A model generated the notes under the pieces. That model worked only from the letters and a program-made list of their open reading frames with translations. It was not told the origin of the DNA and did no database searches. From Candidatus Uhrbacteria bacterium (lineage in GTDB: Bacteria > Patescibacteriota > Patescibacteriia > UBA9934): a stretch of 64,000 bases of DNA. Positions 2,060-64,000 of this stretch are shown one piece after another. Where the stretch lies: contig JABHCP010000012.1 of assembly GCA_018673485.1 (NCBI GenBank), forward strand, positions 30,393-94,392. Reading direction: 5' to 3'. Within the stretch, counting starts at the first letter, position 1, and each line of letters begins with the position of its first letter. Position numbers and translations under genes: made by a program.

Positions 2060-3682
2060 ATGAATAATATGAATATTAAAAAACAATTCGTAGGTGACGC
2101 AATGTGGATTGCATTGAGTTTAATGGGCATCATGCACGCACTTGCATTTTTTGTGCGTGATACTGGATTCGAGTTGCCGATATTTATTATATTCGGCATT
2201 TTTGTTTTGATAGTTTCCTGGCGATCGCAGTTGAATGGATTACTGATCGCGTTTGCTGAGATCTTTGTAGGTGGTCACGGACATTTGTTAGACATCGAGG
2301 TCCTCGGATTTTCATTATCGATTCGAATGTTAATCTTCGCGATCGTGATGACTGTGTGGTTGATTAAATACGCTCGGATCCCCCTACTTTTCAAGGAGGG
2401 GCCAGGGGTGGTTATTTCTCGTATGATTTTTGTCCGTGATTTACCTTGGCTGGTGCTGATCGTGGCTGTAGCTGTCGGAACACTGATCGGTTTTCTACAA
2501 AATGATCCATCTGCGGCATTCGACGATATGAATGGATATGTGGTGATCGGATATTTATTACCCATACTGACTATCAAGTGGGGTCAAGAAAACAAGAGAA
2601 AGTTACTCCAAGTTTTATTTGCGTCGGTTGTATGGATTATGGGATTCACGGTTGCACTCGCATATGCATTTACTCACATCGACGGTGACAACCTGCACAA
2701 TCTTTACACATTCGTTCGCGATTCAAGATTGGCCGAGGTCACGTTGCAGGTTATTGGATCGGACGTTCCATTTTTGAATCGATTTGAGGGTGATTATTGG
2801 TATCGAATTTTCATGCCAACGCAGACCATTGTCATGTTCGGAATGTTGTTGATGTATGCCTCGGCAATGTATCTCTGGCGAAAAAGCAAAAGCCCGTGGT
2901 TCATGTGGGTTATGTTTGGACTTTCAATTTTGACCATCATATTAAGTTTGTCGCGTAGTTTTATTTTGGGTGCAGTCGCTGGCGGTTTGATTATATTTAT
3001 AACAGCTTGGATGTTTGGAAAGGGGAAGTGGTCGATTGTTGTCAGGACTCTTGGTTCTGTTGTGGTTTCGATCTTCGCGGTCTTGTCGATCATTGCGATT
3101 GTGCAAGTTCCAATACCGCAAAGACCCGACTTGAGTGATGCTGCGTTTTTTGAAACGTCATCAGACACAGGGCGATCCGAGGCGGTAGTAAGTCGCTGGA
3201 ATCTCCTTGATCCGATGATGGATGAGATAATTGAAAGCCCGATTATTGGATCGGGGTTTGGTAAAGAGGTAACGTATACATCAGAAGATCCTAGGATAAT
3301 ATCTGAGCTTGGAAATCAGGGATATACAACTTATAGATTCGAATGGGGATGGCATGATATTTGGCTTAAAATGGGTCTATTAGGGCTTGCGGGCTTCATT
3401 TGGTACATTGTGTCGATTGTGCGTGTTGGGTGGTTTACAATGCAGTCCAAGGGCCACAAATGGCTAGTTATTGGATTGGTCGCCGGGATTGTTGGGCTTT
3501 TCGTAACGCACACGTTCTCACCATATCTAAATCACCCAATCGGACTAAGTCTGATGCTATTTATCATTCCGTTTATTGATTGGGATGGGTTCGCAAAGAA
3601 GCGTAAGGAGGCGTATATAGAGGTTAGAAAAAAGAAACTGATGAAACGACCAGCGACAGTAGTTGCATCAAATATTAAATAA
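2060..3682 (+). CDS. Polytopic integral membrane protein, possibly O-antigen ligase/polymerase-like
   Basis: 540 aa with more than 10 hydrophobic helices, immediately downstream of the glycosyltransferase cluster; assignment is by context only. Confidence 0.4.
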   Translation: MNNMNIKKQFVGDAMWIALSLMGIMHALAFFVRDTGFELPIFIIFGIFVLIVSWRSQLNGLLIAFAEIFVGGHGHLLDIEVLGFSLSIRMLIFAIVMTVWLIKYARIPLLFKEGPGVVISRMIFVRDLPWLVLIVAVAVGTLIGFLQNDPSAAFDDMNGYVVIGYLLPILTIKWGQENKRKLLQVLFASVVWIMGFTVALAYAFTHIDGDNLHNLYTFVRDSRLAEVTLQVIGSDVPFLNRFEGDYWYRIFMPTQTIVMFGMLLMYASAMYLWRKSKSPWFMWVMFGLSILTIILSLSRSFILGAVAGGLIIFITAWMFGKGKWSIVVRTLGSVVVSIFAVLSIIAIVQVPIPQRPDLSDAAFFETSSDTGRSEAVVSRWNLLDPMMDEIIESPIIGSGFGKEVTYTSEDPRIISELGNQGYTTYRFEWGWHDIWLKMGLLGLAGFIWYIVSIVRVGWFTMQSKGHKWLVIGLVAGIVGLFVTHTFSPYLNHPIGLSLMLFIIPFIDWDGFAKKRKEAYIEVRKKKLMKRPATVVASNIK

Positions 3683-3685
3683 ATA

Positions 3686-3714
3686 AAAAGCCAGCTGTTA
3701 ATGCTGGTTTTTGC
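3686..3714 (+). terminator. Rho-independent terminator hairpin (aaaaagccagc-tgttaa-tgctggttttt)
   Basis: GC stem followed by a T-run directly after the stop at 3682. Confidence 0.5.
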
Positions 3715-3768
3715 AAAAAGAAACACCCCAACTAGGTGGGGCGTAACGAATGATGTGTGGGCCGCTAG

Positions 3769-3865
3769 TGGCCACGACTGCTACCGATTCAACGAATTGA
3801 TATCAGCGCTAGTTCACATCGGTCCAAATTTCAGTCTAGGTGACAGGCAGGCCGCTAGTGGCCAC
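3769..3865. repeat. Two direct copies of the 16-mer GGCCGCTAGTGGCCAC (3769-3784 and 3850-3865) at the boundary of a high-GC locus
   Basis: Exact 16-bp direct repeat read from the sequence; a CCCCA-N-TGGGG hairpin lies at 3723-3745. Confidence 0.5.
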
Positions 3866-4457
3866 AGTTCCCATCTGAACCCCGATGTTGTTGGGGTCCA
3901 CAGCGGTAGTTTCCGCTGCTTTCTTGGATTTCTTCAGTCGGATCCGGTTGGACCGACGTGACTTCAAATCCGTAGTGGCTTACCTCTACCAACCTCTTGC
4001 CGCGCCGTTTTTGCCATACGTGCCAGCGGTGAAAGTGGTGCAGGTCTTCTGGATTGTTCATCCAGATGGTGAAGTACCGAATTACCTCTTCGAGGATTTG
4101 TTCCTCATCGAGCTTTTTCGGACTCCAGAACACTAGCAGTAGTTCTCTGCCGGGCGTTCCATTGATCTCGAATGGTCCGAGATCCAGGGTCTCGAGAATT
4201 CCATTCTTCTCTGCTTGGGCGAGGACTGATATTCTCCCATCAGGTCCGCATGTGTAGAGGTAGACCCAACGCTCACTCCTCTTCGAGGACGACACGTGCA
4301 AGGTGAGATCATCTCCCATGACGAGTTGTTCATCGAAATGGAAAGTCAGCCGTTGCTCACCTCGAGTGATTGTACCGGAGACACCAGCAGCGTTTGCTGG
4401 TCTCAAGGGCAGGGCCAGGGTGAGTAGGGCGACGAGCAGGGCGAGGGTGCGCTTCAT
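3855..4457 (-). CDS. Hypothetical secreted protein encoded in a high-GC locus
   Basis: Start at MKRTLALLVALLTLALPLRPANAAG (signal peptide); GC about 58% against a roughly 38% background; hairpin (gggacaatcctgtcc) and AAAGGA precede the ATG. Confidence 0.55.
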   Translation of the reverse strand: MKRTLALLVALLTLALPLRPANAAGVSGTITRGEQRLTFHFDEQLVMGDDLTLHVSSSKRSERWVYLYTCGPDGRISVLAQAEKNGILETLDLGPFEINGTPGRELLLVFWSPKKLDEEQILEEVIRYFTIWMNNPEDLHHFHRWHVWQKRRGKRLVEVSHYGFEVTSVQPDPTEEIQESSGNYRCGPQQHRGSDGNCGH

Positions 4458-4607
4458 GGGGTCCTTTCTTGCTCTGTTGGACAGGATTGTCCCGACTGCA
4501 TTCCAAATAATTGAATTATTTTGCATTTGAAACACAGGCGGGCAGTCGAAGGCGAATCCTTCGACCACGGAGTGGTCCGTTGGGACCTGATAGAGAAGAC
4601 GGCTACA

Positions 4608-5120
4608 TCAGGGGTTGATCTTGTAGACTAGTCCCCAGAAGCCGTTGGTGCGCACCATACCATTGAGGTGATGCGTCAGTCCGATGTGGCTCGGGTTTGC
4701 GACGTGACAGGTGTTGCTCCTGTACGTCTTGTTTCCTTCGTTGCGCAGGGCGGAGACGTTTGATGTCCCTCGCGCCCAGACCACGTGATCCCAGGTCAGG
4801 TCGTAGGTCTCAGGGACTTCGAACATCGGCTGGGCGGTGTAGAACGGGTACCTTTCCAGCCGTTCACCCTTGACGAGCATCGCTCCACGGATGACGTCTC
4901 GGAAGTTGACCGTTTCGTACACTTCTTCGCTGCCAACGAAGAAGGTGGCCTCTGGGTTTTCTGCGTCGAAGCTCAGCACCATGAAGATGCTGTTGGGAGC
5001 CTCGACTTCTTCCTGCGTGCAGGCCAAGGGGCCGCCGGCGTAGGCCGGGTTGGGGTTGGACACCGCGAATGCGGCCATGATGGCCAAGATCGCGAGGACG
5101 ACAGCGTTGGTGCGCTTCAT
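4608..5120 (-). CDS. Hypothetical secreted protein encoded in a high-GC locus
   Basis: MKRTNAVVLAILAIMAAFAVSNPNPAYAGG signal peptide; leader is CCCGCAAAG, hairpin (gacgga cccct ccgtc), GAAGGCG, ATG. Confidence 0.6.
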   Translation of the reverse strand: MKRTNAVVLAILAIMAAFAVSNPNPAYAGGPLACTQEEVEAPNSIFMVLSFDAENPEATFFVGSEEVYETVNFRDVIRGAMLVKGERLERYPFYTAQPMFEVPETYDLTWDHVVWARGTSNVSALRNEGNKTYRSNTCHVANPSHIGLTHHLNGMVRTNGFWGLVYKINP

Positions 5121-5213
5121 CGTAACGCCTTCCGACGGAGGGGTCCGTCTTTGCGGGAATTAATCATCCCACCTGTATTTCAAAATAAATTGTTAAAGAA
5201 AGAGAACGAAAAA

Positions 5214-5241
5214 GAATAGCATAAAAATGCAATTCTGTCAA
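5214..5241 (-). promoter_or_regulatory. Sigma70-like promoter TTGACA-17bp-TATTCT on the minus strand, reading into the high-GC locus
   Basis: Reverse complement of 5213-5241 is ttgacagaattgcatttttatgctattct. Confidence 0.4.
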
Positions 5242-5257
5242 TAGTAATGCGCTAGTT

Positions 5258-6196
5258 TTAGCCTAATATAGTGTTGTTGAGATCCTTATGACCCTGAATG
5301 AACGCTGTAGCTGACATCTTTGAACTATTTTGTGGTTGAAGTTCAAGCACTTCAATTACCTTTGTTTTAGTCCCAATGAATAATCGGTTTTCTTCGATTT
5401 GTGCAAGTCCTGGTGCTAAGCTCTTGTCTGAGATTTGCAGGTCATGAATCTTGATAGTTGTTTTGGTCTCATTGCGCTTCCAGATTGTGAAAACCCCTGG
5501 CCATTCGATTAAAGCTCGGAATTGTGCGTAGATGGCGTCAGCTGGTTGGTTCCAGTTGATCTTGCCATCAGCCTTAGTTAGCATTTTGCAAAATGTTGCT
5601 TGTTCGTGATCTTGTTCTTGCGGCTTAACTTTATCGGCTACATATTTCTTTATCGTATCGATAAGTAGCGGCGCTCCTGTCTTTGCAGCTTTTGCACGCA
5701 GGCTTGTTGATGTTTCATCGTTGCCGATTTTCATTTTTTGTTGCGACAGAATAGGTCCATGGTCCATCTTGTCATCAACTAGCATGATCGAGACCGCTGT
5801 CTCGGATTCTTCGTTTAGTATTGTAGATTGAATTGGTGATGGTCCACGATATTTTGGAAGTAGGGAAGGGTGAACATTTACTGTGCCAAGTTTTGGAATA
5901 TCTAAAACTTCTTGTGGAATGATTTTCCCGTAAGCGATAATTACAAATAGATCAGCTTCGAGCTTCTTGAGTTCTTCAGCGATATTGGATGTTCGAAGAT
6001 TGTCAGGTTGAAAAACTGCAATGTCATTCTCTTGAGAGAAAATTTTTGTCTCAGGTGCTGTCAAAATCTTTTTTCGCCCAACAGGTTTGTCTGGTTGGCA
6101 AACTACTCCTTTAATCGAAAATACCTCATCAGCATGTAATGTAGCGAGGAATTCTTTTGCAAATTCAGGCGTTCCAAAAAAGACTGTTTTGATCAT
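5258..6196 (-). CDS. fmt: Methionyl-tRNA formyltransferase
   Basis: MIKTVFFGTPEFA...VVCQPDKPVGRKK N-terminal formyltransferase motifs; 312 aa. Confidence 0.85.
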   Translation of the reverse strand: MIKTVFFGTPEFAKEFLATLHADEVFSIKGVVCQPDKPVGRKKILTAPETKIFSQENDIAVFQPDNLRTSNIAEELKKLEADLFVIIAYGKIIPQEVLDIPKLGTVNVHPSLLPKYRGPSPIQSTILNEESETAVSIMLVDDKMDHGPILSQQKMKIGNDETSTSLRAKAAKTGAPLLIDTIKKYVADKVKPQEQDHEQATFCKMLTKADGKINWNQPADAIYAQFRALIEWPGVFTIWKRNETKTTIKIHDLQISDKSLAPGLAQIEENRLFIGTKTKVIEVLELQPQNSSKMSATAFIQGHKDLNNTILG

Positions 6197-6272: not shown

Positions 6273-6809
6273 ATGGAGATCATTGTCTGCACAGAGAACA
6301 GGGCAAAAGTTCAAGCTATAACGGAAGTTTTTAGCAACTTGCACCCTGAGGCGAATATTATCAGTAAAAGCTTTTCGTCAGATATTTCCGATCAACCAAT
6401 GAGTGAAGAGGAAGGGCTCGACGGTGCTATAAATCGTGCGAATAATGCCAGACGGGAATATTTAGAAGCACATTATTGCATTGGCATGGAAGGGTTTGTT
6501 GATGTTAATAAATTCGGTATGTTCCTCGCTGGCGCTGTGGCGATTATTGATCAGCAGGGTATAATTGGCTTAGGGACGAGCGCTAAAGTTCTGTTGCCTA
6601 AGTTTATTGCAAAAGAAATTGAGGCTGGTGTCGAGTTGGGCCCACTTGTAAAAGACTTAATGGATGATGTAAAAGGTGAAATTCGTCATAGTGCAGGTAC
6701 GACAGGTGTTTTAACAAAGGGTCTTTATAATCGTGTTGATGAATTTAAGGATGCAACAAAGTGCGCATTGGCAAGATTTCAGTCACCTAAACTTTTTGAG
6801 ATTCAATAA
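6273..6809 (+). CDS. yjjX: Inosine/xanthosine triphosphatase (YjjX family, non-canonical purine NTP phosphatase)
   Basis: 178 aa; MEIIVCTEN...KVQAITEVF and EEGLDGAINRANNARREY resemble the YjjX pattern. Confidence 0.6.
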   Translation: MEIIVCTENRAKVQAITEVFSNLHPEANIISKSFSSDISDQPMSEEEGLDGAINRANNARREYLEAHYCIGMEGFVDVNKFGMFLAGAVAIIDQQGIIGLGTSAKVLLPKFIAKEIEAGVELGPLVKDLMDDVKGEIRHSAGTTGVLTKGLYNRVDEFKDATKCALARFQSPKLFEIQ

Positions 6810-7020
6810 TTCTGAAATTATTGTTTTGATCCTTGCTGAGGTTAGCGCTAACTTATATCAGGGTATGTAAGTATTTGACTTACTCAATATATCTGCTAGA
6901 CTTATTTTAGATAGATAAATATGTTTATAAATATAGCAAATAGTCAGGGATGGCGATGGAATTGCAAAGAAACTGCATGACCATTGTTTTGTTTGTAAAT
7001 TTTTAATAAAAAAATTAAAA

Positions 7021-7053
7021 CTCCACCTGGTCAGCAGGTGGAGTTTTTGTTTT
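7021..7053. terminator. Hairpin terminator ctccacctg-gtcagc-aggtggag followed by a T-run, flanked by an A-run (likely bidirectional)
   Basis: 9-bp perfect stem followed by TTTTTGTTTT. Confidence 0.5.
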
Positions 7054-7156
7054 GACGCTTGTTTCTTGTGACGTAATAATCGCCAGCACAAAACTTCTAT
7101 CATATTTGTAAATGAGGTGCGCTGGACTCATTTATAAAAACAAAAGGAGACTCGTC

Positions 7157-7369
7157 ATGAGTAATTCTTGTACCCATAAGTGGGAATATGTTGGAAGAAT
7201 ACCTGGATATTGGTGTTCTCGTGATCTGTATTGCTGCATTCATTGTGGCCATACCTGCAGAGGATCAGAATTCGATGCATTTGGATATGCATGCGGCACT
7301 GCAGGAAAACCTGAAGCTGGTGAGGGTGGCAATGAAGCTGCAACCTCTGATAAAGAGAGCAGAGATTAG
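7157..7369 (+). CDS. Small Cys-rich hypothetical protein (about 70 aa)
   Basis: AAAGGAGACTCGTC-ATG ribosome-binding site; MSNSCTHKWEY...CCIHCGHTCRG cysteine cluster; start could be 7112 instead. Confidence 0.4.
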   Translation: MSNSCTHKWEYVGRIPGYWCSRDLYCCIHCGHTCRGSEFDAFGYACGTAGKPEAGEGGNEAATSDKESRD

Positions 7370-7401
7370 ATATACGTCTTTACGTTAGGCGTATCTCAAA
7401 A

Positions 7402-7438
7402 CCCCGTGTCAATTGAATTGACACGGGGCTATTTTTTT
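7402..7438. terminator. Bidirectional rho-independent terminator (ccccgtgtcaattgaattgacacgggg then T-run)
   Basis: 11-bp perfect stem between convergent genes, with A/T runs on both sides. Confidence 0.65.
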
Positions 7439-7448
7439 CAAAATTGAA

Positions 7449-10597: not shown

Positions 10598-11941
10598 TTA
10601 TTCGATTGCGTCACCGAGTCGGTGCAATGCGAGCGTTTCGTCTGATACGTCAATTATGTCGTTCCATTGCCAACCAAATGAGTTAAATATGCTTTCTGAT
10701 CCAATCGGTAGTCTCTCACCCTCGGCAATAACGTATACGGTTGGATCGGTTGTTGTCTTAATAAGATATCCGTCAGGGATTAGTAGGTGAGCGGCCTCAG
10801 CGTATTGCTCGACCTCCACTGGTTCGATAATTCTAGATGATAATCCAAAGCGAGCGAGCGCTATATCTTGAGTTAAAACTGCGTGTCGAAGCCCACCTTG
10901 GAGATAGTAATATGCATCATTTGTAGAGAGCTGAACTAGTTCACCGGTAACGCTTGCGGTGGACGCTGTGATTGTTGCACCTTGCTCGTAAAGCTCCACG
11001 TCGTCACTGTCTATTTCATTTAATTCATCATCTTTAAATCCAAGTGTGTAAAATGAATCAACAGAATCAAACGGCCTTAGTGAATCATCAACTAGTAAAT
11101 AGATGTTCTCATCGTCATCATGGAGAAGGGAATAGTTCGGGAAATCAATTGCCCGCCCGTCGGAATAATTATCAAGTGTTTCAGGATTAACCTCTATGAT
11201 TAGATCGGAGTTAAAGCGTGATAATAGGGCGGACCAACTATTAATCGGTCGCTTGAATCCATATTCAATGTAGTAAACTCCGCTTTCGCCTGCAGCCTGC
11301 AATAGCGAGCCGGTGGGGTAGTTAGTGCTAAACCATCTGTCCCAAATCGTGACAAAGTTTTCATTTCCATGCAGGTGCGGCGTGTAGGCATAGAGTGCTG
11401 CCGTCGCTGCATTGATTGGTGTAACGGTGGTGTCATCGATCTCTACATCAACACCTGGACCGTACACACCTTGGGTGGTTCCGTAATTATCTATGTCTTC
11501 TAAGTATCCTTCCGAGAGTTGCATTGCAGCCGAGTTGACTTGTTTTCCAAATCCTTTCCAGCGCTGTATTGCCTCGTCCTGCTTGGAGCAGTCATCGCAA
11601 ACCGCATAACCCATAGCCCAGTCCAACTGACTATCAGACGGGTCATCATCCTCAACTAGTGATTGTTCTTTTTGCAACATCACCAAAAGTACTTTTGGAC
11701 TGATGCCTCTAGTCTGTGCAGTTTCCCAAATTATATTGGTTGCATAGGTATCGTCACCTTCCCAGTCTTCAGTTAAATAATCACCAAGAAACCCTCTGTT
11801 TAAGTAATGCTGAATTTGATTGAAGTCCAGAGCAAAAGGATCAGTAAAGTCCCAGTCAGAAATCAGGTAATTTGGGTCAAAAGCAAATACCTGAGCAGGG
11901 AACAGTAAAGACAGGAATATAAACATGACAAGCTTTCTCAT
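10598..11941 (-). CDS. Hypothetical secreted protein
   Basis: MRKLVMFIFLSLLFPAQVFA signal peptide; acidic, Tyr/Asp-rich mature part. Confidence 0.5.
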   Translation of the reverse strand: MRKLVMFIFLSLLFPAQVFAFDPNYLISDWDFTDPFALDFNQIQHYLNRGFLGDYLTEDWEGDDTYATNIIWETAQTRGISPKVLLVMLQKEQSLVEDDDPSDSQLDWAMGYAVCDDCSKQDEAIQRWKGFGKQVNSAAMQLSEGYLEDIDNYGTTQGVYGPGVDVEIDDTTVTPINAATAALYAYTPHLHGNENFVTIWDRWFSTNYPTGSLLQAAGESGVYYIEYGFKRPINSWSALLSRFNSDLIIEVNPETLDNYSDGRAIDFPNYSLLHDDDENIYLLVDDSLRPFDSVDSFYTLGFKDDELNEIDSDDVELYEQGATITASTASVTGELVQLSTNDAYYYLQGGLRHAVLTQDIALARFGLSSRIIEPVEVEQYAEAAHLLIPDGYLIKTTTDPTVYVIAEGERLPIGSESIFNSFGWQWNDIIDVSDETLALHRLGDAIE

Positions 11942-12090
11942 AGTGGAGTTATTATAGCAGTTATCAGGGCTCAATGCACAGCGCTCAGTGTATGATTTTG
12001 GTGCCTATTAGTGCTCTAAAACTGTGAACTGAGTACTGTAAACTGTGTACTTTTATTGCCTAAAATTAGCCCCAAATCCACGGTTAGCTA

Positions 12091-12119
12091 TTGACAAACT
12101 TGTCATTTTGTGCTATAGT
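12091..12119 (+). promoter_or_regulatory. Sigma70-like promoter TTGACA-17bp-TATAGT reading into a high-GC locus
   Basis: ttgacaaacttgtcattttgtgctatagt; exact consensus -35 with a 17-bp spacer. Confidence 0.45.
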
Positions 12120-12363
12120 ACTTCTTGTAAGATCAAGCAATTGATCCCTTGCAAACAACTTGAGAGAGCCCTAACTTCTGGGTAAAAGAAGTATCCATCA
12201 ACATCGCTATTGTGGCGTGTTGGTAGAAAGCCGGTTATCTCTCTTAATTAAGAAAGGTAGCCGGTTTTCTTTATAGGTGAGGTAGTCAGACCTGAATAGA
12301 CAATGTCTAAGTAGATCTGACCACCTCGACCACCACCACAAGCCCACCCGGGCTGGAGCCACC

Positions 12364-12444
12364 ATGAACACCATCCTCTCCCTGATCGCCGCCTTCACTT
12401 GCACCGCCGGCCCCGTCGCGCTGATCGCCAGCGTGATGATGTAG
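12364..12444 (+). CDS. Putative 26-aa hydrophobic peptide (MNTILSLIAAFTCTAGPVALIASVMM)
   Basis: Hairpin (agcccacccgggct), GGAGCCACC, ATG; followed by the hairpin cacctgattcgtcaggtg; resembles the signal peptide of the lipoprotein at 12681. Confidence 0.3.
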   Translation: MNTILSLIAAFTCTAGPVALIASVMM

Positions 12445-12680
12445 TCCTCGTGCTACATCGGCCATCTTCTCACCTGATTCGTCAGGTGAGCTACCCCCAA
12501 CCTTTGATCAAGTATCGAAGTTTGAGAGTAGCTCATAGCACTCCTCGAGCATAGGAAAGAGCGCACCTTACATATCTCTCACTCCACTTTTTCCTTTGCT
12601 CAAGGAGCGTATGCGAGTCGAATTTCTCGACCAACACGCAAGAATGACCCCCATCGCCTTCGGGCGAGAGTGAGAACATC

Positions 12681-13196
12681 ATGAACATGACCAACATCCT
12701 GCGCGTCGCCCTGTACTCCCTGATCGCCGCCCTGAGCCTGACCACCACCGGTTGCTTCGACCTGTCGAACGCTGGTGTGGACTGCTACTGGGACAGTGAG
12801 TCCGGCGCCCCCATCTGCGATGTGGGTGTGGGTACCGGCTACGGCAGTGGCAGCGGCAGCTACGAAGACACCGTCTGGGTGATGTGGGAGTCCTCCAAGC
12901 CAGAGCGTTTGACGGACTTCACCATGACGTGCACGTTCGATGACCGTGAGAACGAGAAGTTCTCCATCATCGCTGACGTCTATATCACCGACAGTTACTA
13001 CGTGGATGCCTATTTTCCGGGCGTGCCCAGCCACTTCGATGCAGTGTGCAGTGGTATGGCATACTTCAACGGAGTGGAGATCCCGTTGTTCTCCGGTGAG
13101 GTCCCGACCGGCGACGTCCTAGTCGTTCAGTGGGAAGATGAGCAAGTTGACAATTTCTGGGCTCGTAACAACGAGCTGGATATTGACTACAACTAG
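12681..13196 (+). CDS. Hypothetical lipoprotein encoded in a high-GC locus
   Basis: MNMTNILRVALYSLIAALSLTTTGC lipobox-like signal; hairpin (cgccttcgggcg) about 20 nt upstream of the ATG; GC about 58%. Confidence 0.55.
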   Translation: MNMTNILRVALYSLIAALSLTTTGCFDLSNAGVDCYWDSESGAPICDVGVGTGYGSGSGSYEDTVWVMWESSKPERLTDFTMTCTFDDRENEKFSIIADVYITDSYYVDAYFPGVPSHFDAVCSGMAYFNGVEIPLFSGEVPTGDVLVVQWEDEQVDNFWARNNELDIDYN

Positions 13197-13263
13197 CCTC
13201 ACCATCCAACCCCTCCTTCTCGACCCCCGCATGCCTAGCATCGCGGGGGTTCGACACGTCTAG

Positions 13264-13300
13264 GAAATGTTTAAGTTGTTGAAAATGTTTAAAGTGTTTA
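13264..13300. repeat. AT-rich dispersed repeat family R4 (GTTTAAGTTGTTGAAAATGTTTAAAGTGTTTAC)
   Basis: Related copies at 17021-17100, 18858-18895 (inverted), 22705-22742 and 43421-43510. Confidence 0.5.
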
Positions 13301-13480
13301 CTTTGAGATAAAAAATTATCCATGATATGAGCGATCGCTCACATCATGGATAATTTGTATGCATAACTATTTTGCAAAACAGGATGGCTGCGCCAGCCGA
13401 AGCCAACATCTGTATAGCTGTGAATCTATCTCCGCAGAACAATCTTTGATATACCACGGTGATAGTAAAACAGCGAAGGC

Positions 13481-13557
13481 TGGTGGACCCTACCGGGCTC
13501 GAACCGGTGACCTCTTGCCTGCCAGGCAAGCGCTCTAGCCAACTGAGCTAAGGGCCC
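13481..13557 (-). tRNA. tRNA-Ala (anticodon GGC), CCA encoded
   Basis: Manual fold: acceptor GGGCCCT/AGGGTCC with a G3:U70 pair; D arm GCTC/GAGC; anticodon loop CUGGCAG; T arm ACCGG-TTCGAGC-CCGGT; discriminator A. Confidence 0.85.
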
Positions 13558-13566
13558 ATGAACACG

Positions 13567-13575
13567 ATTATATCA
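13567..13575 (-). promoter_or_regulatory. Extended -10 element TGATATAAT upstream of tRNA-Ala
   Basis: Minus strand reads TGATATAAT about 11 nt before the tRNA 5' end, preceded by the perfect palindrome CAGGCTTAGCC-N5-GGCTAAGCCTG (13574-13600). Confidence 0.35.
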
Positions 13576-13639
13576 GGCTTAGCCATTTAGGCTAAGCCTG
13601 ATTGACTAGGTCTGTGAATCTCAGTTTTGTATTTATATG

Positions 13640-14260
13640 ATATAGCAAAGAGCCGCCTGGCAGAGATTGCGAGGAGGCTCAAGGGTGCTCACACCGGCCG
13701 AGTAGGTCATGGCGCACGGCGATCGGTTTGGTGACCGATGTGGGCAGGGCGAACGTGTAGAATATGACCCGTACCAGGCCTTTTCGAAGTCCCACTCCCG
13801 GTTGGGTGTGATTTTTCAAGGCACAGGTCATAAGAGGGTGGCTGCGGAGCGGGTCATGGCCCTCGCTCACACACCTCCACGGCACTTGCAGTACGTCGCA
13901 TCGTTCGATTGCTCCCGGCCCGCACTAATGTTATGGGCTTTGGCGTCGATCGCGTCGTTTGGTAGCGTGGCCTGTTGAGGTGCTTAGGCTGGAGCTCACC
14001 GCTCCGCAGCCTGGTTTGAAAGAGGGGGTTCTCACGCGACGCGCTTCCTCCCTAGTGACTGCTCAGCGTGATTGCTGTGGTGGTACGACAGTTGCCGGAT
14101 CGTCGATCACCCGCCCCGAAAGCCCGGGACTTGCATTTGGACTCTTTCTAACCAAGATTGGTGGCCGTGAAAAGCAGCGTCGACCTGGCAGTCGATACAG
14201 TCCGAATTGCTCGAACCACACTGCGGACGGTCTGTCGCCCTCACGGCCATAGAATGAACT
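13640..14260. other. About 620 bp high-GC segment without a convincing ORF: candidate structured non-coding RNA or decayed foreign cassette
   Basis: GC about 60%, yet only short out-of-phase ORFs of 100 aa or less on either strand; RNase P and tmRNA hallmark motifs were looked for and not found. Confidence 0.3.
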
Positions 14261-14305
14261 TGAGATAATTAAAGCATTGCGCCAGTGAATTGTCAAGAAT
14301 AAGCA

Positions 14306-14327
14306 AAAACCCACATTGTGGGTTTTT
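14306..14327. terminator. Bidirectional terminator aaaacccacattgtgggttttt, plus a second hairpin at 14334-14358
   Basis: Perfect stem with A/T runs on both sides, immediately downstream of clpB. Confidence 0.55.
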
Positions 14328-14363
14328 GTTGATGGATTCCTGCTTTCGCAGGAATGACAAGTT

Positions 14364-17003
14364 TTATCGAACAGTGATTTTTACTGCGTCTTGTATGACG
14401 TCGATTGTTACGGTGCTTTCTTCTGGGACTTCGCCTTGCACTATCTTCATGGCTAGTGGGTCCAGGATTTTGTGTTGGATGATTCTCTTGAGCGGACGAG
14501 CGCCGTATTGAGGATCATAGCCTTCCTTTGCTAGATACTTTTTGGCACGCTCAGTAACCTTCACTATAATCTGTTTTTGACTGCTTAGGCGCTGTGCCAC
14601 TAAGTCAACTTGGAGTTGAACAATGTCGGCGATGTGACTTTCTGAAAGTGCGTGGAAGAAGATTATTTCATCCACTCGGTTTAGGAACTCTGGTTTGAAT
14701 TGTTCGCGCATCATTTCCATCACGCGGTCTTTAACTCCGTTGGATTCATTGTGCTCGCGGACAGAGTCATCATCAAAACCAATGTTTCCAGCTTTTTCGG
14801 AATTGAGTATAAACTCAGAGCCGATATTGGATGTCATTATAATGATTGTGTTTTTGAAGTTCACACGTCGACCCTTGGCGTCAGTTAGGTGGCCGTCATC
14901 CAAAACCTGCAAAAGCATGTTGAAAATGTCTGGGTGTGCTTTTTCGATTTCATCAAAGAGAATGACAGAGTAGGGGCGTCGTCTCACTTTTTCTGTAAGT
15001 TGTCCGGCCTCATCGTGGCCGATGTATCCAGGAGGGGATCCGATCATTTTGCTTACACTATGCTTTTCCATATACTCTGACATGTCCACGCGGATGAGTG
15101 CTTCCTCGTCGTCAAACATGAAGTCTGCCAATACCTTTGCCAGCTCTGTTTTACCAACTCCAGTTGGACCCAAGAATATAAATGATCCGATCGGTTGCTT
15201 TTCCTCACTGATTCCAGCGCGTGATCGTCGCAGGGCATTGCTCACCGCAGTAATCGCTTCGTCTTGCCCGATAACTTGAGATTTCAAATCATCTTCCATG
15301 GTGGCAAGTTTTTCCATTTCACCCTGGAGCATCTTGCTCATTGGAATGTGTGTCCAGCGCGAAACGATTGATGCGATTTCTTCTGGCCCGATTTCTTCTT
15401 TTAATAGCCCACGTTCTTCTTGGAAGTTTTTAAGTTCAGTCTGAGCATCCTCCAGGTTTTCTCGTTTTTCAGGAATTACGCTGTAACGGATCTCTGCAAC
15501 TTTTTGCAAATCACCTTTACGCTCTTCAATGTCTGATTCGTTCGTAAGTTTGTCGATTTCATCCTTTAGATTTCTAATCTTCTGGATAATTGCTTTTTCG
15601 TTTTTCCAACGCAGCTCAAGCTCTGAGGATTGCTCTTTTGAGTCACCAATTGATTTTTCGATTTGCTTCAGTCTTTGCTTTGACTGCTTGTCTTTTTCTT
15701 TGAGTAGTGATTGCTTTTCAATCTCCAAGCGCATTTCTTCACGCTTGAGCCGATCAAGCTCCTCAGGCATTGAGTCGATTTGCATTCTAAGTGCTGCCGC
15801 TGACTCATCCATCAAGTCGATCGCCTTGTCTGGCAAGAATCGCTCAGTAATGTAGCGACTTGAAAGCTCAGCTGCTGCAACAAGTGCTGCGTCACTAATC
15901 CGCACTCCGTGGTGAATCTCGTATTTTTCCTTAATACCACGCAGGATCGCAATGGTATCAGGCACAGATGGTTCCTCAACTATCACGGGTTGGAATCTAC
16001 GTTCAAGCGCTGCGTCTTTCTCAATGTACTTTTGATATTCTTTAAGTGTTGTTGCACCAATCACACGCATCTCACCACGAGCAAGAGCAGGCTTTAGCAT
16101 GTTACTCGCATCCATGGGGCTTTCTTCACCTTTACCAGCACCAACTAAGTTATGTAGCTCATCGATGAATAAAATCATCTTACCGTCTGACTGTTCAATT
16201 TCCTTTACCACCGCTTTTAGACGTTCTTCAAACTCACCGCGGAATTTTGTTCCAGCAACGAGTGCTCCTAGGTCAAGTGAGATAATCTCGCGGTTCTTTA
16301 GCATTTCAGGAACATCTTCGGCAACAATTCTCTGGGCTAGTCCTTCAGCTATTGCAGTCTTACCAACTCCAGCTTCTCCAATGAGCACTGGGTTGTTCTT
16401 TTTGCGGCGAACTAATACTTGCATCAGCCGTCGAATTTCTTCGTCTCGTCCAATGACTGGGTCGAGTTTTCCAAGGCGTGCATATTCAGTTAGGTTTATG
16501 CTGTATTTTTCCAGCGCCTGGAACTTTGCTTCCGGATCAGCCGAATCCACCTTTTGATTTCCACGCACATCTTTGAGCGCTTCAAGGGTTGGTTTTACTT
16601 CAATTCCTTGACCAGTTAAGAACTGAGCGACTTGTTTATTTTGCAAGAGCGCTAAAAACAAATGTTCTGTTGAGATAAAATCATCACCAAATTGTTTAGC
16701 TTGGTTTGCGCTGTTTTGCATTGTCTTAGCTAGGGCAGGGGAGAGAAGAACCTGTCCCATTCCACTTTGATTAAAACCAAAGTTTTTTGGAAGAGATTGC
16801 AGTATTTGATCGACCTGCGAAATAAGTCGATTCACGTTGATCTTCATTTTTTGCAAGAGTGACGGAATAATTCCAGCGTCTTGATTTATAAGACTAGCAA
16901 GAAGATGAATCGGGTCAACCGCCTGCTGACCATTTTCATTAGCCAGCATCTGAGCCACCTGAATGGCTTCCTGAGATTTAGAAGTAAAGTTATTGGGTAT
17001 CAT
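14364..17003 (-). CDS. clpB: ATP-dependent chaperone ClpB (AAA+ disaggregase)
   Basis: 879 aa; two AAA+ modules ([18 protein letters not shown] and [15 protein letters not shown]) separated by a coiled-coil M domain. Confidence 0.9.
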
Positions 17004-38920: not shown

Positions 38921-38962
38921 TTTAATCTCATTCGATCGAATTATTGGTCTCATTTTACCATA

Positions 38963-38991
38963 ATTGACAAAAGGCCTTTTTAATGATAGAT
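38963..38991 (+). promoter_or_regulatory. Sigma70-like promoter TTGACA-17bp-TAGATT for high-GC cassette A
   Basis: ttgacaaaaggcctttttaatgatagatt. Confidence 0.45.
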
Positions 38992-39057
38992 TTAATCGTC
39001 TTCCAGATACCAACTCGCCCGCAAGGGCATGGGCTTAAAGCCCGAAGGAGGCGTAAG

Positions 39058-39729
39058 ATGCCTCAGTGTACCCCCGAAGGTGCGATCGATCTCGTGGACT
39101 TTATTGGCCACACTCACAAGATGCTCGGTCTCATCGACCCAGTCGGGTTGCCCGAGACCGCCTCGCGTATCGATGACGTTGCACATATCCTGGCTGAGAA
39201 CGGCTGGGAGAATGTGACAGAGATGTTCGAGCGTGCTGTCTTGGATCCAAGTGTGCGTCCGATCGCGCATAATATCGAGATGATGAATACGCACATCGGC
39301 CACAATGGCTACAGTGGCACCTACATGCGGTTGACCAGCGGTGATGGCCGATTCCGTGTGGTGATCGCTCCAAGTGACGTATGTGGTATCGAGACCGGAC
39401 AATGGTGGCTCGCTACTGTGACCATGTACGATGTGTCGGGTCCCTCCAGGTCGGCTGCCGCGTACGCTCACTGTTTCGGCGCCCACTACTGGTACGGCCC
39501 TACACCGCATCAGGTCCGTTGCGAAGCCAATCCTGGTTGCATGGCGATGAAGCTTGAGATCTCGCCGTGGCATACCGATGTGGTCATAGGTAGTGAGGGG
39601 CTCTTCGACCGATTGCGCTCCGACAACTATGGCCGCGAGATTCGCATCATGGCCCGCTGTCTCGGCCGCAACCACTTCGCTCGCAACGGGCCGAATTTCG
39701 ACTTCCTCAGGAATATCGAGTTCGAGTAG
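39058..39729 (+). CDS. Hypothetical protein, high-GC cassette paralogue A (224 aa)
   Basis: Leader is CCCGCAAGG, hairpin (gggcttaaagccc), GAAGGAGGCG, ATG; paralogous to 39930-40577 (shared YMRLTSGDGRFRV / YLRIDSADGRIRV and PHQVRCEANPG / PHQVHCEPNPG). Confidence 0.55.
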   Translation: MPQCTPEGAIDLVDFIGHTHKMLGLIDPVGLPETASRIDDVAHILAENGWENVTEMFERAVLDPSVRPIAHNIEMMNTHIGHNGYSGTYMRLTSGDGRFRVVIAPSDVCGIETGQWWLATVTMYDVSGPSRSAAAYAHCFGAHYWYGPTPHQVRCEANPGCMAMKLEISPWHTDVVIGSEGLFDRLRSDNYGREIRIMARCLGRNHFARNGPNFDFLRNIEFE

Positions 39730-39824
39730 TGATCGCGACTCGCCCCCCCCCGTACGTCTCGAACCCCCACCTCGTGGGGGTTCTTCGTTTTCAGCAAAAA
39801 CATTGCTAATTCTGGCCAAAAGCC

Positions 39825-39853
39825 TTGACAAAAGGGCTTTTTTCTGCTATTGT
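39825..39853 (+). promoter_or_regulatory. Sigma70-like promoter TTGACA-17bp-TATTGT for cassette B (a duplicated copy of the cassette A promoter context)
   Basis: ttgacaaaagggcttttttctgctattgt. Confidence 0.45.
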
Positions 39854-39929
39854 TAGCAGTTCAAAAAGAACACCTGTGTGTGAAACTTCGCCCGTAAGGG
39901 TATGGGCCTAAAGCCCAAAGGAGGCTGTA

Positions 39930-40577
39930 ATGCCTCAGACCGAAGAAAGTCAGGAGTGCATGGGCGTGAGCGAGTTCGTCAACGCTGTTCACATCATGCT
40001 CGCTCTCCCCAAGCTCGATCTGCCTGAGGACGCCAAGAGCGTCGGTGAGATCCAGGAGGTCCTGCTGGAGAACGGCTGGATGGATATCGCGAAACGCCTC
40101 CGACTCACCGTACGTAAGCACGGTGAGTCGGAGCCCGACTACCGGGGTCCGTACCTGCGTATCGACAGCGCCGATGGGCGTATCCGCGTCACGATCAGTG
40201 ACCGGTGCCCTCGCCCGGAAACCAATGACTGGCAGAGGTGGTACGGTGATGTGATGCTGTTCGATATCTCCGACAGCCACCCGTGGCGCCATGATGACCA
40301 GATCCGCAAGTTCGGTTGTCACATGTGGCAGGACGGCCAGCACCCTCACCAGGTCCACTGCGAGCCCAACCCGGGCCAGCGGATCATGTACCTGAGCTTC
40401 TGGCCCAGTAACGTCGTGGCCGTGCCCGACCATGATGTGCAGGATCACTTCAAGTGGGCCCGCTTCCGCAGTCAGTGGGGGCTCTACATGGACCGAATTG
40501 TGAACGTTGTGGGTGAGTACTTCAACGAAGGTGACTCCTACACCGAGGCGTTCCTGAAGTGCACCTCGGTCGAGTAG
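39930..40577 (+). CDS. Hypothetical protein, high-GC cassette paralogue B (215 aa)
   Basis: Leader is CCCGTAAGG, hairpin (gggcctaaagccc), AAAGGAGGC, ATG; followed by hairpin gaacccccacctcgtgggggttc, the same hairpin found after paralogue A. Confidence 0.55.
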   Translation: MPQTEESQECMGVSEFVNAVHIMLALPKLDLPEDAKSVGEIQEVLLENGWMDIAKRLRLTVRKHGESEPDYRGPYLRIDSADGRIRVTISDRCPRPETNDWQRWYGDVMLFDISDSHPWRHDDQIRKFGCHMWQDGQHPHQVHCEPNPGQRIMYLSFWPSNVVAVPDHDVQDHFKWARFRSQWGLYMDRIVNVVGEYFNEGDSYTEAFLKCTSVE

Positions 40578-40636
40578 CTTGCCTCTGACCGATCTTATCT
40601 TGAACCCCCACCTCGTGGGGGTTCTGTGCATCCAAA

Positions 40637-40669
40637 AGAAAACAACCGCCTTGCGACGGTTGTTTTTTG
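40637..40669. terminator. Bidirectional terminator aaaacaaccgcc-ttgcga-cggttgtttttt
   Basis: Stem with A/T runs on both sides, between convergent genes. Confidence 0.6.
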
Positions 40670-44088: not shown

Positions 44089-45477
<1,389 letters not shown>

Positions 45478-51783: not shown

Positions 51784-51857
51784 TGGCGCCGATGGCAGGA
51801 ATTGAACCTGCGACCCCCTGCTCGACGGCAGGTGCTCTATCACTGAGCTACATCGGC
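51784..51857 (-). tRNA. tRNA-Asp(GUC)-like gene with an apparent 6-nt anticodon loop
   Basis: Acceptor GCCGATG/CATCGGC, D arm GCTC/GAGC, T arm GCAGG-TTCAATT-CCTGC, discriminator G, CCA encoded; anticodon stem CCTGC/GCAGG encloses CGTCGA. Confidence 0.55.
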
Positions 51858-51871
51858 TAAGGAGTGAGAAA

Positions 51872-51984
51872 TGGCTCTGGGGGCTGGATTTGAACCAACG
51901 ACTTCCTGCGTGATGGTAGGTGAACTAACCAGTTGTTCTACCGGCTTGGCAAACAGGCGAGCTAACCAACTGCTCTACCCCAGA
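51872..51984 (-). tRNA. 113-nt tRNA-like gene: canonical acceptor, D and T arms, with about 36 extra nt in the anticodon region (candidate tRNA-Gly(GCC) carrying an insertion or intron, or a disrupted tRNA)
   Basis: 5' TCTGGGG-TA-GAGC-AGTTGGTTA-GCTC-G-CCTGT-TTGCCA[36 nt]C-GCAGG-AAGTC-GTTGG-TTCAAAT-CCAGC-CCCCAGA-G-CCA; removing 51911-51946 gives a 77-nt cloverleaf with loop UUGCCAC. Confidence 0.45.
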
Positions 51985-63504: not shown

Positions 63505-64000
63505 ATGCAGAACTTTGCATACCTTGTGCCCGCAGCGGGTATCTTGGCGTTGATCTACGCCTTCATCAAGACCCAGTGGATCAACAGGCAAGATCCGGGT
63601 GACGCGAAGATGCAGGAGATCGGTCTGGCTATCCGTGAAGGAGCCATGGCCTTCCTGGCCACTGAGTACAAGGTCCTCGCGATCTTCGTCGCGGTGGTCG
63701 CGGTCCTCCTGGGCGTCGTCAACTTCATGCAGATCGGTCCGTCGGCATCGTTCGTTTCGTTGTCCTTTGTCGTCGGTGCAGGCTGCTCTGGCTTGGCTGG
63801 CTTCATCGGGATGCGAGTGGCTACTGCCGCCAACGTTCGTACCACGGCTGCAGCTCGCACCAGCCTTCCCGACGCTCTCCAGGTCGCCTTCTCCGGCGGC
63901 GCTGTCATGGGCATGTCCGTGGTCGGTTTGGCACTGCTCGGGCTCGGTGGTCTCTACCTGCTCTACATCGCCATGTTCGGTGGTGGTCCCGAGGCCGATC
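63505..64000 (+). CDS. hppA: Membrane-bound proton-translocating pyrophosphatase (H+-PPase), 5' part; continues beyond the window
   Basis: AGGAGAAG ribosome-binding site; translation [67 protein letters not shown]... matches the HppA N-terminus; GC about 62%; reading frame open to the window end; the minus-strand ORF 63555-63914 is its antisense artefact. Confidence 0.75.

Follow-up and report, generated by a model that had tools for sequence, protein, structure and literature searches.

The interval from position 12091 to about position 13260 in the 64,000 nucleotides (nt) of Candidatus Uhrbacteria DNA analysed here (a stretch of contig JABHCP010000012.1, in the following called the window) is best read as one native, vertically inherited transcription unit, that is, a leader-controlled operon for a fast-evolving lipoprotein with a predicted beta-sandwich domain, to which an optional micro-open reading frame (micro-ORF) belongs; we give this reading, under which the interval is not an island, a probability of about 0.7. 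On the plus strand the order of elements is a near-consensus sigma-70 promoter, a leader of ~150 nt (leader A), a variable slot, a second leader (leader B), a ribosome-binding site (RBS), the lipoprotein gene and a GC-rich hairpin; this architecture is conserved in related genomes. A first-pass annotation, made from the letters alone, had instead taken the interval for a high-GC cassette placed beside a tRNA-Ala gene in an integration geometry, with a 26-residue peptide mimicking the signal sequence of the lipoprotein; the sequence features it named are largely real, the readings as cassette and as mimic are not supported. Uhrbacteria belong to the candidate phyla radiation (CPR), the members of which are uncultured and, to our knowledge, almost wholly uncharted with regard to gene regulation and surface construction. 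With two leader RNAs that are undescribed and strongly constrained, and behind them the gene for a fast-diverging surface lipoprotein specific to the clade, the locus would thus offer a handle on gene regulation in these organisms, and the lipoprotein itself is likely to be a host- or phage-facing component of the CPR cell surface.

The promoter (12091-12119) consists of TTGACA (12091-12096), a spacer of 17 nt and TATAGT (12114-12119), preceded by the TG of an extended -10 element. It had been described correctly in the first-pass annotation, matches the consensus in 11 of 12 positions and is the sole promoter-like site that the scan found on the plus strand between 11500 and 14500; transcription is predicted to start near 12126. 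The locus was recovered from six further genomes of Uhrbacteria or close relatives (L001, L002, L009, L010, L011 and L012), and the promoter lies at the same position in all seven loci. An independent metagenome contig, L005, is identical to the window (0 mismatches over 2441 nt). In each of the six further genomes the lipoprotein gene adjoins a divergently oriented gene for a secreted protein of ~450 residues; further out, LigB and PriA are encoded on one side and, in L001, L002, L009 and L011, ClpB on the other. One of these relatives, L009 (CAYVLY010000001.1, a 709-kb contig), is labelled “uncultured Gammaproteobacteria bacterium”, yet it is syntenic with the window, and its ClpB and secreted neighbour are 93% and 87% identical to those encoded there; judged by these sequences, the taxonomic label is probably wrong.

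Leader A (12126-12274), modelled with RNAalifold and with folds of the individual sequences, comprises a 5′ hairpin, a conserved GAGAGAG tract (12162-12168), an H-type pseudoknot, a hairpin P2 (~12197-12224) with a covarying stem, and an intrinsic terminator, the hairpin of which (12226-12269) carries CUCUCUU in its 5′ arm and is followed by UUUUCUUUAU. The pseudoknot has the layout GCCC-N2-S2-GGGU-N3-S2′; stem S1 is formed by GCCC (12168-12171) and GGGU (12180-12183), stem S2 by ACUUCU (12174-12179) and AGAAGU (12187-12192). S2 occurs in four versions (ACUUCU/AGAAGU, GCUUCU/AGAAGC, GUCC/GGAC and GCCC/GGGC), which are always paired, and the pseudoknot is paired in each of the six distinct leader A sequences (hand-assigned pairs, all checked). 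A terminator hairpin followed by UUUUCUUU is present in leader A of all loci, and its 5′ arm always contains CUCUC. Among the six distinct sequences, 19 of the 38 pairs of the model have changed on both sides; 79% of the alignment cells are paired, as compared to 42-54% when the partners are slid against each other, and none of 500 shuffles reached the observed covariation. Between the window and L002 the leader is 91% identical. A search with the model found one copy per locus, always upstream of the lipoprotein gene, and none elsewhere in the 64-kb window. Neither leader A nor leader B matched any of the 4227 families of Rfam 15, at the gathering threshold or at E ≤ 5, over positions 11900-14450, where tRNAs alone were found, and neither leader core was found on viral contigs in a search of IMG/VR; a phage origin was accordingly rejected.

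In its placement in the 5′ untranslated region (5′ UTR), its helix covariation and its single-stranded tract complementary to part of the terminator, leader A is like terminator-based riboswitch and attenuator leaders. With the classes that use small H-type pseudoknots as sensors (preQ1-I, SAM-II, fluoride) it shares a compact conserved pseudoknot and a helper hairpin in front of an intrinsic terminator; unlike these, it matches no Rfam family and is known from one locus per genome in one CPR clade. The lipoprotein gene would be expressed by regulated read-through of the terminator, be it attenuation or a riboswitch-like switch, which perhaps uses the complementarity between GAGAGAG and CUCUC. 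Such read-through would be the most economical route to expression because the DNA from the terminator to the start codon is without a further promoter-like site; on the plus strand none with at least 9 of 12 matches was found in this interval in the window, L002 or L009 by a scan for sigma-70-type sites (promoters of other types were not scanned for). In L010, the promoter is separated from the leader A core by an insert of ~330 nt of repetitive DNA (5277-5605), rich in ACGAAC/GAUGAAC units and holding two long near-duplicate blocks.

Leader B (12493-12650), just upstream of the RBS, is composed of small hairpins (~12502-12520; UGAG..CUCA at ~12523-12535; 12616-12632) and of a long hairpin of ~22 bp (12538-12611), the near-invariant loop of which contains UCUCUCACUCCAC (12575-12587). 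The window, L001, L002 and L009 have this leader; L010, L011 and L012 lack it. Over 142 nt it is 92% (L002) and 87% (L009) identical to the window, as compared to 39-43% identity at fourfold degenerate (4-fold) sites of neighbouring genes. Judged from the alignments, leader A covaries and leader B is under extreme sequence constraint. There is complementarity between the CU-rich loop and the purine-rich tract of the RBS (12666-12675) in four of four loci, and we put forward as a hypothesis that it masks the RBS, by which leader B would tune the initiation of translation. The 5′ UTR as a whole (565 nt) has a folding energy of -211.6 kcal/mol (z = -10.7). In L011, a distant relative, each of the two ORFs of the operon is preceded (4940-4985 and 5620-5665) by a module of ~45 nt, CGCGAGGTTATGAGAGTGGAATGATTCTCATAGCGGCGTGA, the core of which, UGAGAG...CUCAUAGC, resembles the start of leader B in the window.

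The gene under this control (12681-13196, plus strand; 171 residues), already named as a lipoprotein gene in the first-pass annotation, is borne out by the ORF list and by homologues and is annotated as a hypothetical protein in a Candidatus Uhrbacteria genome. Its signal peptide ends in the lipobox TTGC (...IAALSLTTTG-C25; the codon for Cys25 is at 12753-12755); G24 and C25 are invariant in all seven sequences of the family, and the relatives have LTGC or LSGC. The lipobox rule of PROSITE (PS51257) asks for an uncharged h-region followed by [LVI/ST][ASTG][GAS]-C, with the cysteine at positions 15-35, a pattern to which the window protein conforms when checked by eye; an arginine of the n-region is at position 8, or at position 6 if Met3 is the start, as alignments with the relatives suggest. 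AlphaFold, run on the seven-sequence alignment, predicts with confidence an all-beta sandwich domain of ~110 residues behind a low-confidence, disordered linker rich in Cys and Gly; the mean predicted local distance difference test (pLDDT) score is 73, and means of 10-residue blocks are 81-89 over residues 61-170 (77 for the final residue). A substrate of Lgt and LspA looks the same: a hydrophobic signal peptide ending in [T/L]-x-G-C, an invariant cysteine, a flexible linker and a globular domain. Different are the residue at -3, which is Thr here and not Leu, and the mature domain, which represents an undescribed family of about ten proteins, all from CPR bacteria.

Foldseek found no significant relative of this domain in PDB or BFVD, generic immunoglobulin- or fibronectin type III-like sandwiches alone being returned, and no Pfam or NCBIfam family matched the lipoprotein, its divergent secreted neighbour, the slot ORFs of the relatives or any of the other ORFs of high GC content. 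Seven family members were found among 5.8 billion proteins, and nine matches with E ≤ 1e-3 among 1.84 billion representatives, one of which is a spurious repeat protein; in these two collections there was no homologue outside the clade, everything found being a CPR/Uhrbacteria protein or an unnamed metagenome protein. Between genomes the lipoprotein is 52-54% identical, as compared to 92-93% for ClpB and 87% for the secreted neighbour, so that its gene is one of those that evolve fastest in this neighbourhood, which is to be expected of a component exposed on the surface. A search of the literature on codon bias in CPR bacteria and on lipoproteins of Uhrbacteria returned nothing relevant. The gene is followed by the closing GC hairpin (13220-13254, plus strand; CCCCCGC...GCGGGGG, with a weak U-tail), which is also present behind the lipoprotein gene in L001, L002, L009, L010 and L012. 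On the opposite strand, a 144-codon ORF (12600-13034, minus strand) overlaps the lipoprotein gene, and the like is seen opposite the genes at 38992-39831 and 39861-40631; the antisense ORF is best explained as a by-product of the scarcity of stop codons in DNA that is GC-rich at third codon positions.

That the promoter points into GC-rich DNA, as had been remarked, is true insofar as the shift in composition is real; it is restricted to third codon positions and is kept in the orthologues, and a foreign origin is not supported. Behind the promoter ~150 nt of low-GC structured leader come first. In 150-nt windows the GC content runs from 0.38-0.40 to 0.60-0.62 (12275-12499), then 0.46-0.50 (12425-12649) and 0.53-0.66 over the lipoprotein gene. 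The excess is confined to the third position: its GC content (GC3) is 0.96 in the small ORF of the slot and 0.78 in the lipoprotein gene against a background of ~0.40, with ordinary values at the first and second positions (GC1 and GC2). All orthologues of the lipoprotein gene have a GC3 of 0.76-0.90, in genomes where the GC3 of the flanking genes ranges from 0.20-0.30 (L001) to 0.52 (L012), and all ORFs of the operon are at 0.76-0.96 except for the slot ORF of L011 (0.60). At 4-fold sites the lipoprotein genes have C at 0.48-0.66 and A at 0.02-0.07, as compared to a background of ~0.35-0.45 each for A and T. Where ClpB and the secreted neighbour have conserved residues, the 4-fold sites of their genes are 34-43% identical between the window and L002, L009 and L001, and saturation would be 29-30%; because these sites are near saturation, the lineages are old enough for a foreign composition to have decayed, and the bias persists. 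Recent transfer as an explanation of the GC-richness is, as far as these comparisons go, not supported; recent foreign DNA was rejected on the grounds that the orthologues keep their GC3 against a background of 0.20-0.52 and that no homologue from a donor lineage was found.

The cause of the bias may be selection on mRNA or decoding; alternatively, a surface-protein locus that recombines may undergo GC-biased gene conversion. Elsewhere in the window, GC3 outliers are found at 4608-5120 (minus), 39059-39729 (plus), 39930-40577 (plus) and in a gene starting near 63505. As a speculation that we consider rather doubtful, a small set of Uhrbacteria genes, comprising the lipoprotein, changing micro-ORFs and probably the other high-GC cassettes, would be held at a GC3 of ~0.8-0.96 in AT-rich genomes (background 0.2-0.5), beyond neutral saturation, either by selection on mRNA or decoding or by biased conversion at a recombination hot spot, and would be gated by two undescribed leader RNAs, one that combines pseudoknot and terminator and one with a CU-rich loop able to mask the RBS. 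A gene-specific GC3 bias that persists across genomes of very different composition would be a clean natural test of codon or mRNA selection against biased gene conversion.

The outliers belong to three GC3-rich units (3855-5250, minus; 38960-40640, plus; 63505-64000, plus) with a GC3 of 0.6-0.8 against 0.40, each of which follows a TTGACA-type promoter. Two secreted ORFans are among their products, and for the one of 170 residues (4608-5120) the donor search found no homologue except itself among the 5.8 billion proteins. The units also include two tandem paralogous genes with near-identical 5′ UTR hairpins and GAACCCCCAC...GTGGGGGTTC terminators, as well as a gene whose N-terminal sequence, by eye, resembles that of a membrane pyrophosphatase.

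Between the leaders lies the variable slot (12276-12491, ~215 bp by the leader alignment), which consists of a hairpin H1 (~12276-12331) with an internal CCUGAAUAGA motif, a small hairpin with GGAG, an ORF of 26 codons (12364-12444, plus strand) and a closing hairpin. ORF, GGAG and hairpin had all been noted before and are all present, GGAG (12355-12358) standing 5 nt before the ATG; the hairpin behind the ORF (12470-12489), which had been taken for a terminator, has no U-run and is not terminator-like. The segment has no counterpart in L001 and L002, the latter keeping ~14 nt at this place. With regard to content, the slot holds no ORF in L001, L002 and L010, one in the window (26 residues), L012 (94) and L011 (163), and two GC3-rich ones in L009 (54 and 88); the small ORF thus sits in a segment that is missing from some lineages and taken up by different small ORFs in others. 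H1 and the hairpin behind the small ORF are homologous to the outer flanks of the two-ORF segment of L009 (for H1 the score is 17 as compared to 7.3±1.2, with none of 3000 shuffles as high). The similarity between the 26-residue product and that of the 54-residue ORF of L009 is not significant (p = 0.15), and homology of the two was rejected. In L005 the slot segment is found with 0 mismatches.

The predicted peptide, MNTILSLIAAFTCTAGPVALIASVMM, is hydrophobic (grand average of hydropathicity 1.70), has no charged residue and is of transmembrane length; it matched no family, Pfam included. Its reading frame has a GC3 of 26/27 (0.96) with GC1 of 0.44 and GC2 of 0.48, and because such a frame has a chance of only ~2e-4 in DNA of its composition (binomial, over three frames), it carries, or recently carried, a coding signature. 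The ORF would be co-transcribed with the lipoprotein gene; it is about an even bet that its translation yields a small membrane peptide with which the operon is optionally equipped. The first-pass annotation, which saw in it either a duplication remnant or a small membrane peptide, had staked its account on a translation signal and a shift in composition, and both are there; of its two options the second is alive, given the Shine-Dalgarno sequence and the coding-type composition, and descent from the signal peptide lacks support. In a Smith-Waterman comparison peptide and signal peptide score 26, a value equalled by 12% of shuffles (p = 0.12), unrelated signal peptides giving 23-33, and duplication of the signal peptide is therefore rejected at the protein level. 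At the DNA level the two regions share a single identical run of 16 nt, CTCCCTGATCGCCGCC (codon-shuffle p ~ 0.02), a marginal resemblance that a common codon bias and hydrophobicity can readily bring about.

Several points weigh against the interpretation as a leader-controlled operon with an accessory peptide. Transcription start, termination, read-through and translation are all inferences. The counts for leader A come from six distinct sequences, in an alignment derived from and fitted to the structure model, and the GAGAGAG tract can pair with the CUCUC of the terminator arm in the upper part of the hairpin only; such pairing would leave the lower part of the stem closed, no full antiterminator can be drawn, unlike for known attenuators, and the switch model is incomplete to that extent. 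A simple terminator scan did not flag the terminator of leader A, because its stem has an internal mismatch. The complementarity between the loop of leader B and the RBS barely exceeds that of shuffled sequences (p 0.03-0.08 per locus). The small ORF is known from one lineage (the window and the identical L005), where it stands without homologues, and over the 11 in-frame codons past its TAG the GC3 is 0.73, which fits a decaying fragment. The RNA motifs, which are new, and the curious base composition, both from a phylum that is little understood, are drawn from few sequences.

The single-lineage occurrence and the GC3 past the TAG bear on the strongest rival, which concerns the micro-ORF: it could be a non-functional remnant, either the stump of a longer slot gene, as found in L009, L011 and L012, or a partial duplication of the 5′ part of the lipoprotein gene. 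This high GC3 looks like the mark of a young stop codon, a hint that the gene was shortened not long ago; the flanks homologous to the larger slot of L009, the trace of ~14 nt in L002 (slot content appears to be readily lost) and the 16-nt identity with the signal-peptide region point in the same direction. On the other hand, the ORF has an intact ATG, a well-spaced GGAG and 26 unbroken codons with nearly every third position G or C, its uncharged sequence of transmembrane length is typical of genuine small membrane proteins, and the lack of significant similarity to the L009 ORF does not favour a stump. We consider a remnant a serious contender that falls somewhat short of an even chance, a translated accessory membrane peptide and a decaying remnant being roughly equally likely.

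Less credible, though it deserves consideration, is the possibility that leader A is a stand-alone small RNA gene of ~150 nt and that the lipoprotein gene is transcribed from an unrecognised promoter in the slot or in leader B. A strong promoter is followed by a compact structure and, right behind it, by a strong terminator hairpin with a U-run; the position of leader A is fixed and the DNA behind it varies; and leader B is absent from L010, L011 and L012, where leader A or an A-like leader is present. Against this, the sigma-70-type scan mentioned above left the DNA between terminator and start codon empty in the window, L002 and L009, and leader A was found solely here and always upstream of the lipoprotein gene, which is typical of cis-acting leaders. 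We therefore think a small RNA gene unlikely and prefer read-through of leader A into the operon.

It is improbable that the small ORF encodes a type I toxin or a regulatory leader peptide, the translation of which might, for instance, mask a C-rich Rho-loading region. Like Ibs and ShoB toxins and KdpF-like accessory peptides, its putative product is uncharged, hydrophobic and of transmembrane length and has its own Shine-Dalgarno sequence, and it would be co-transcribed with a membrane-associated product. The RNA upstream is heavily structured, and the sense strand at 12275-12500 has much C and little G (GC skew about -0.25). Unlike these systems, the ORF has no sign of an antisense RNA (there is no antisense promoter-like site near it, the sole one on the minus strand in 11500-14500 being at 11757), no family match and no counterpart outside a single lineage; since close relatives lack it and otherwise retain the control region, it cannot be essential to regulation.

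The least tenable alternative is the one originally proposed, a horizontally acquired high-GC cassette of lipoprotein gene and duplicated signal-peptide fragment, integrated next to the 3′ end of tRNA-Ala, which we regard as very improbable: the jump in composition, the orientation of the tRNA, the 16-nt identity and the variability of the tRNA-proximal side in L001 speak for it, and they are outweighed by synteny in six genomes, four of which (L002, L009, L011 and L012) have no tRNA in the DNA fetched, by the confinement of the GC excess to third positions and its retention in orthologues beside neighbours with nearly saturated 4-fold sites, by the absence of homologues outside the clade in the two protein collections and of leader cores on the viral contigs of IMG/VR, by protein similarity to the signal peptide at the level of chance, and by the want of an integrase and of a tRNA repeat. 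With regard to the latter two, the tRNA-Ala(GGC) gene (13557 to 13481, minus strand; ARAGORN and Rfam) does face the locus with its 3′ end, as stated in the first-pass annotation, and lies outside the operon. An attachment-site-like repeat of the tRNA (±6 nt), for which that annotation had suggested looking, was not found at a length of 13 nt or more in the window, and the tRNA as attachment site was rejected; two 12-mers, at 45407 and 62978, are 32-49 kb away (~0.6 expected). Just the small ORF and the lipoprotein gene, neither with a family match, lie between promoter and tRNA, and among precomputed Pfam matches of the syntenic neighbours are PriA, LigB, ClpB and the like and no integrase. 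The comparative check suggested at the same time shows the lipoprotein unit in relatives without the tRNA and no presence or absence tied to the tRNA site. An integron-like cassette array was dropped as well: there is no integrase, no RYYYAAC/GTTRRRY boxes of attC type were seen by eye, and the divergent neighbour is the secreted protein of ~450 residues, without Pfam or NCBIfam match, and not IntI.

What the locus shares with tRNA-targeted islands is a segment of atypical composition beside the 3′ end of a tRNA; unlike them, it has neither integrase nor tRNA-derived repeat, is syntenic in genomes without the tRNA, and its composition is codon-position-specific and ancient. A “high-GC island next to a tRNA” can thus falsely signal horizontal transfer. 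A convergent unit on the minus strand has the tRNA gene as its last member, and its 3′ end (13313-13557) is marked by a 20-bp terminator hairpin (13356 to 13313, minus strand; terminator scan), and the suggestive geometry is simply that of two convergent units. In L001, tRNA-Ala(GGC) is 2.7 kb from the lipoprotein gene, behind four low-GC3 genes; these (3152-5693), a fragment of an MFS (major facilitator superfamily) transporter gene, a methyltransferase gene and two genes of unknown function, lie between the terminator of the lipoprotein gene and the 3′ end of the tRNA in this relative only. The tRNA-proximal side would accordingly be variable in L001, the lipoprotein unit itself not appearing as an insert.

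The convergent unit starts at a conserved minus-strand promoter (14296 to 14268; TTGACA-17-TTTAAT), also present in L002 and L009, behind which a conserved, apparently noncoding stretch of high GC content and ~620 nt is found in the window (13630-14296, minus strand), L002 (7770-8350), L001 (5835-6330) and L009 (~6790-7440). Behind it, on the same strand, comes tRNA-Ala(GGC) in the window and in L001. The stretch can form nested long-range helices, for example GGCUGCGGAGCG/CGCUCCGCAGCC, which shows a compensatory change in L002; it has no match in Rfam at E ≤ 10 and is a candidate for a large structured RNA. A pairing of GAAAGAGUCC with GGCGGCUCUUU within it recalls, by eye only, helix P4 of RNase P. 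Elsewhere in the window, two tRNA-like genes are adjacent on the minus strand (51784-51857 and 51875-51984). To one of them ARAGORN assigns an irregular anticodon loop (“tRNA-???, anticodon tc”), and next to this one Rfam calls a tRNA of 110 nt, a length that leaves room for an intron or an insertion.

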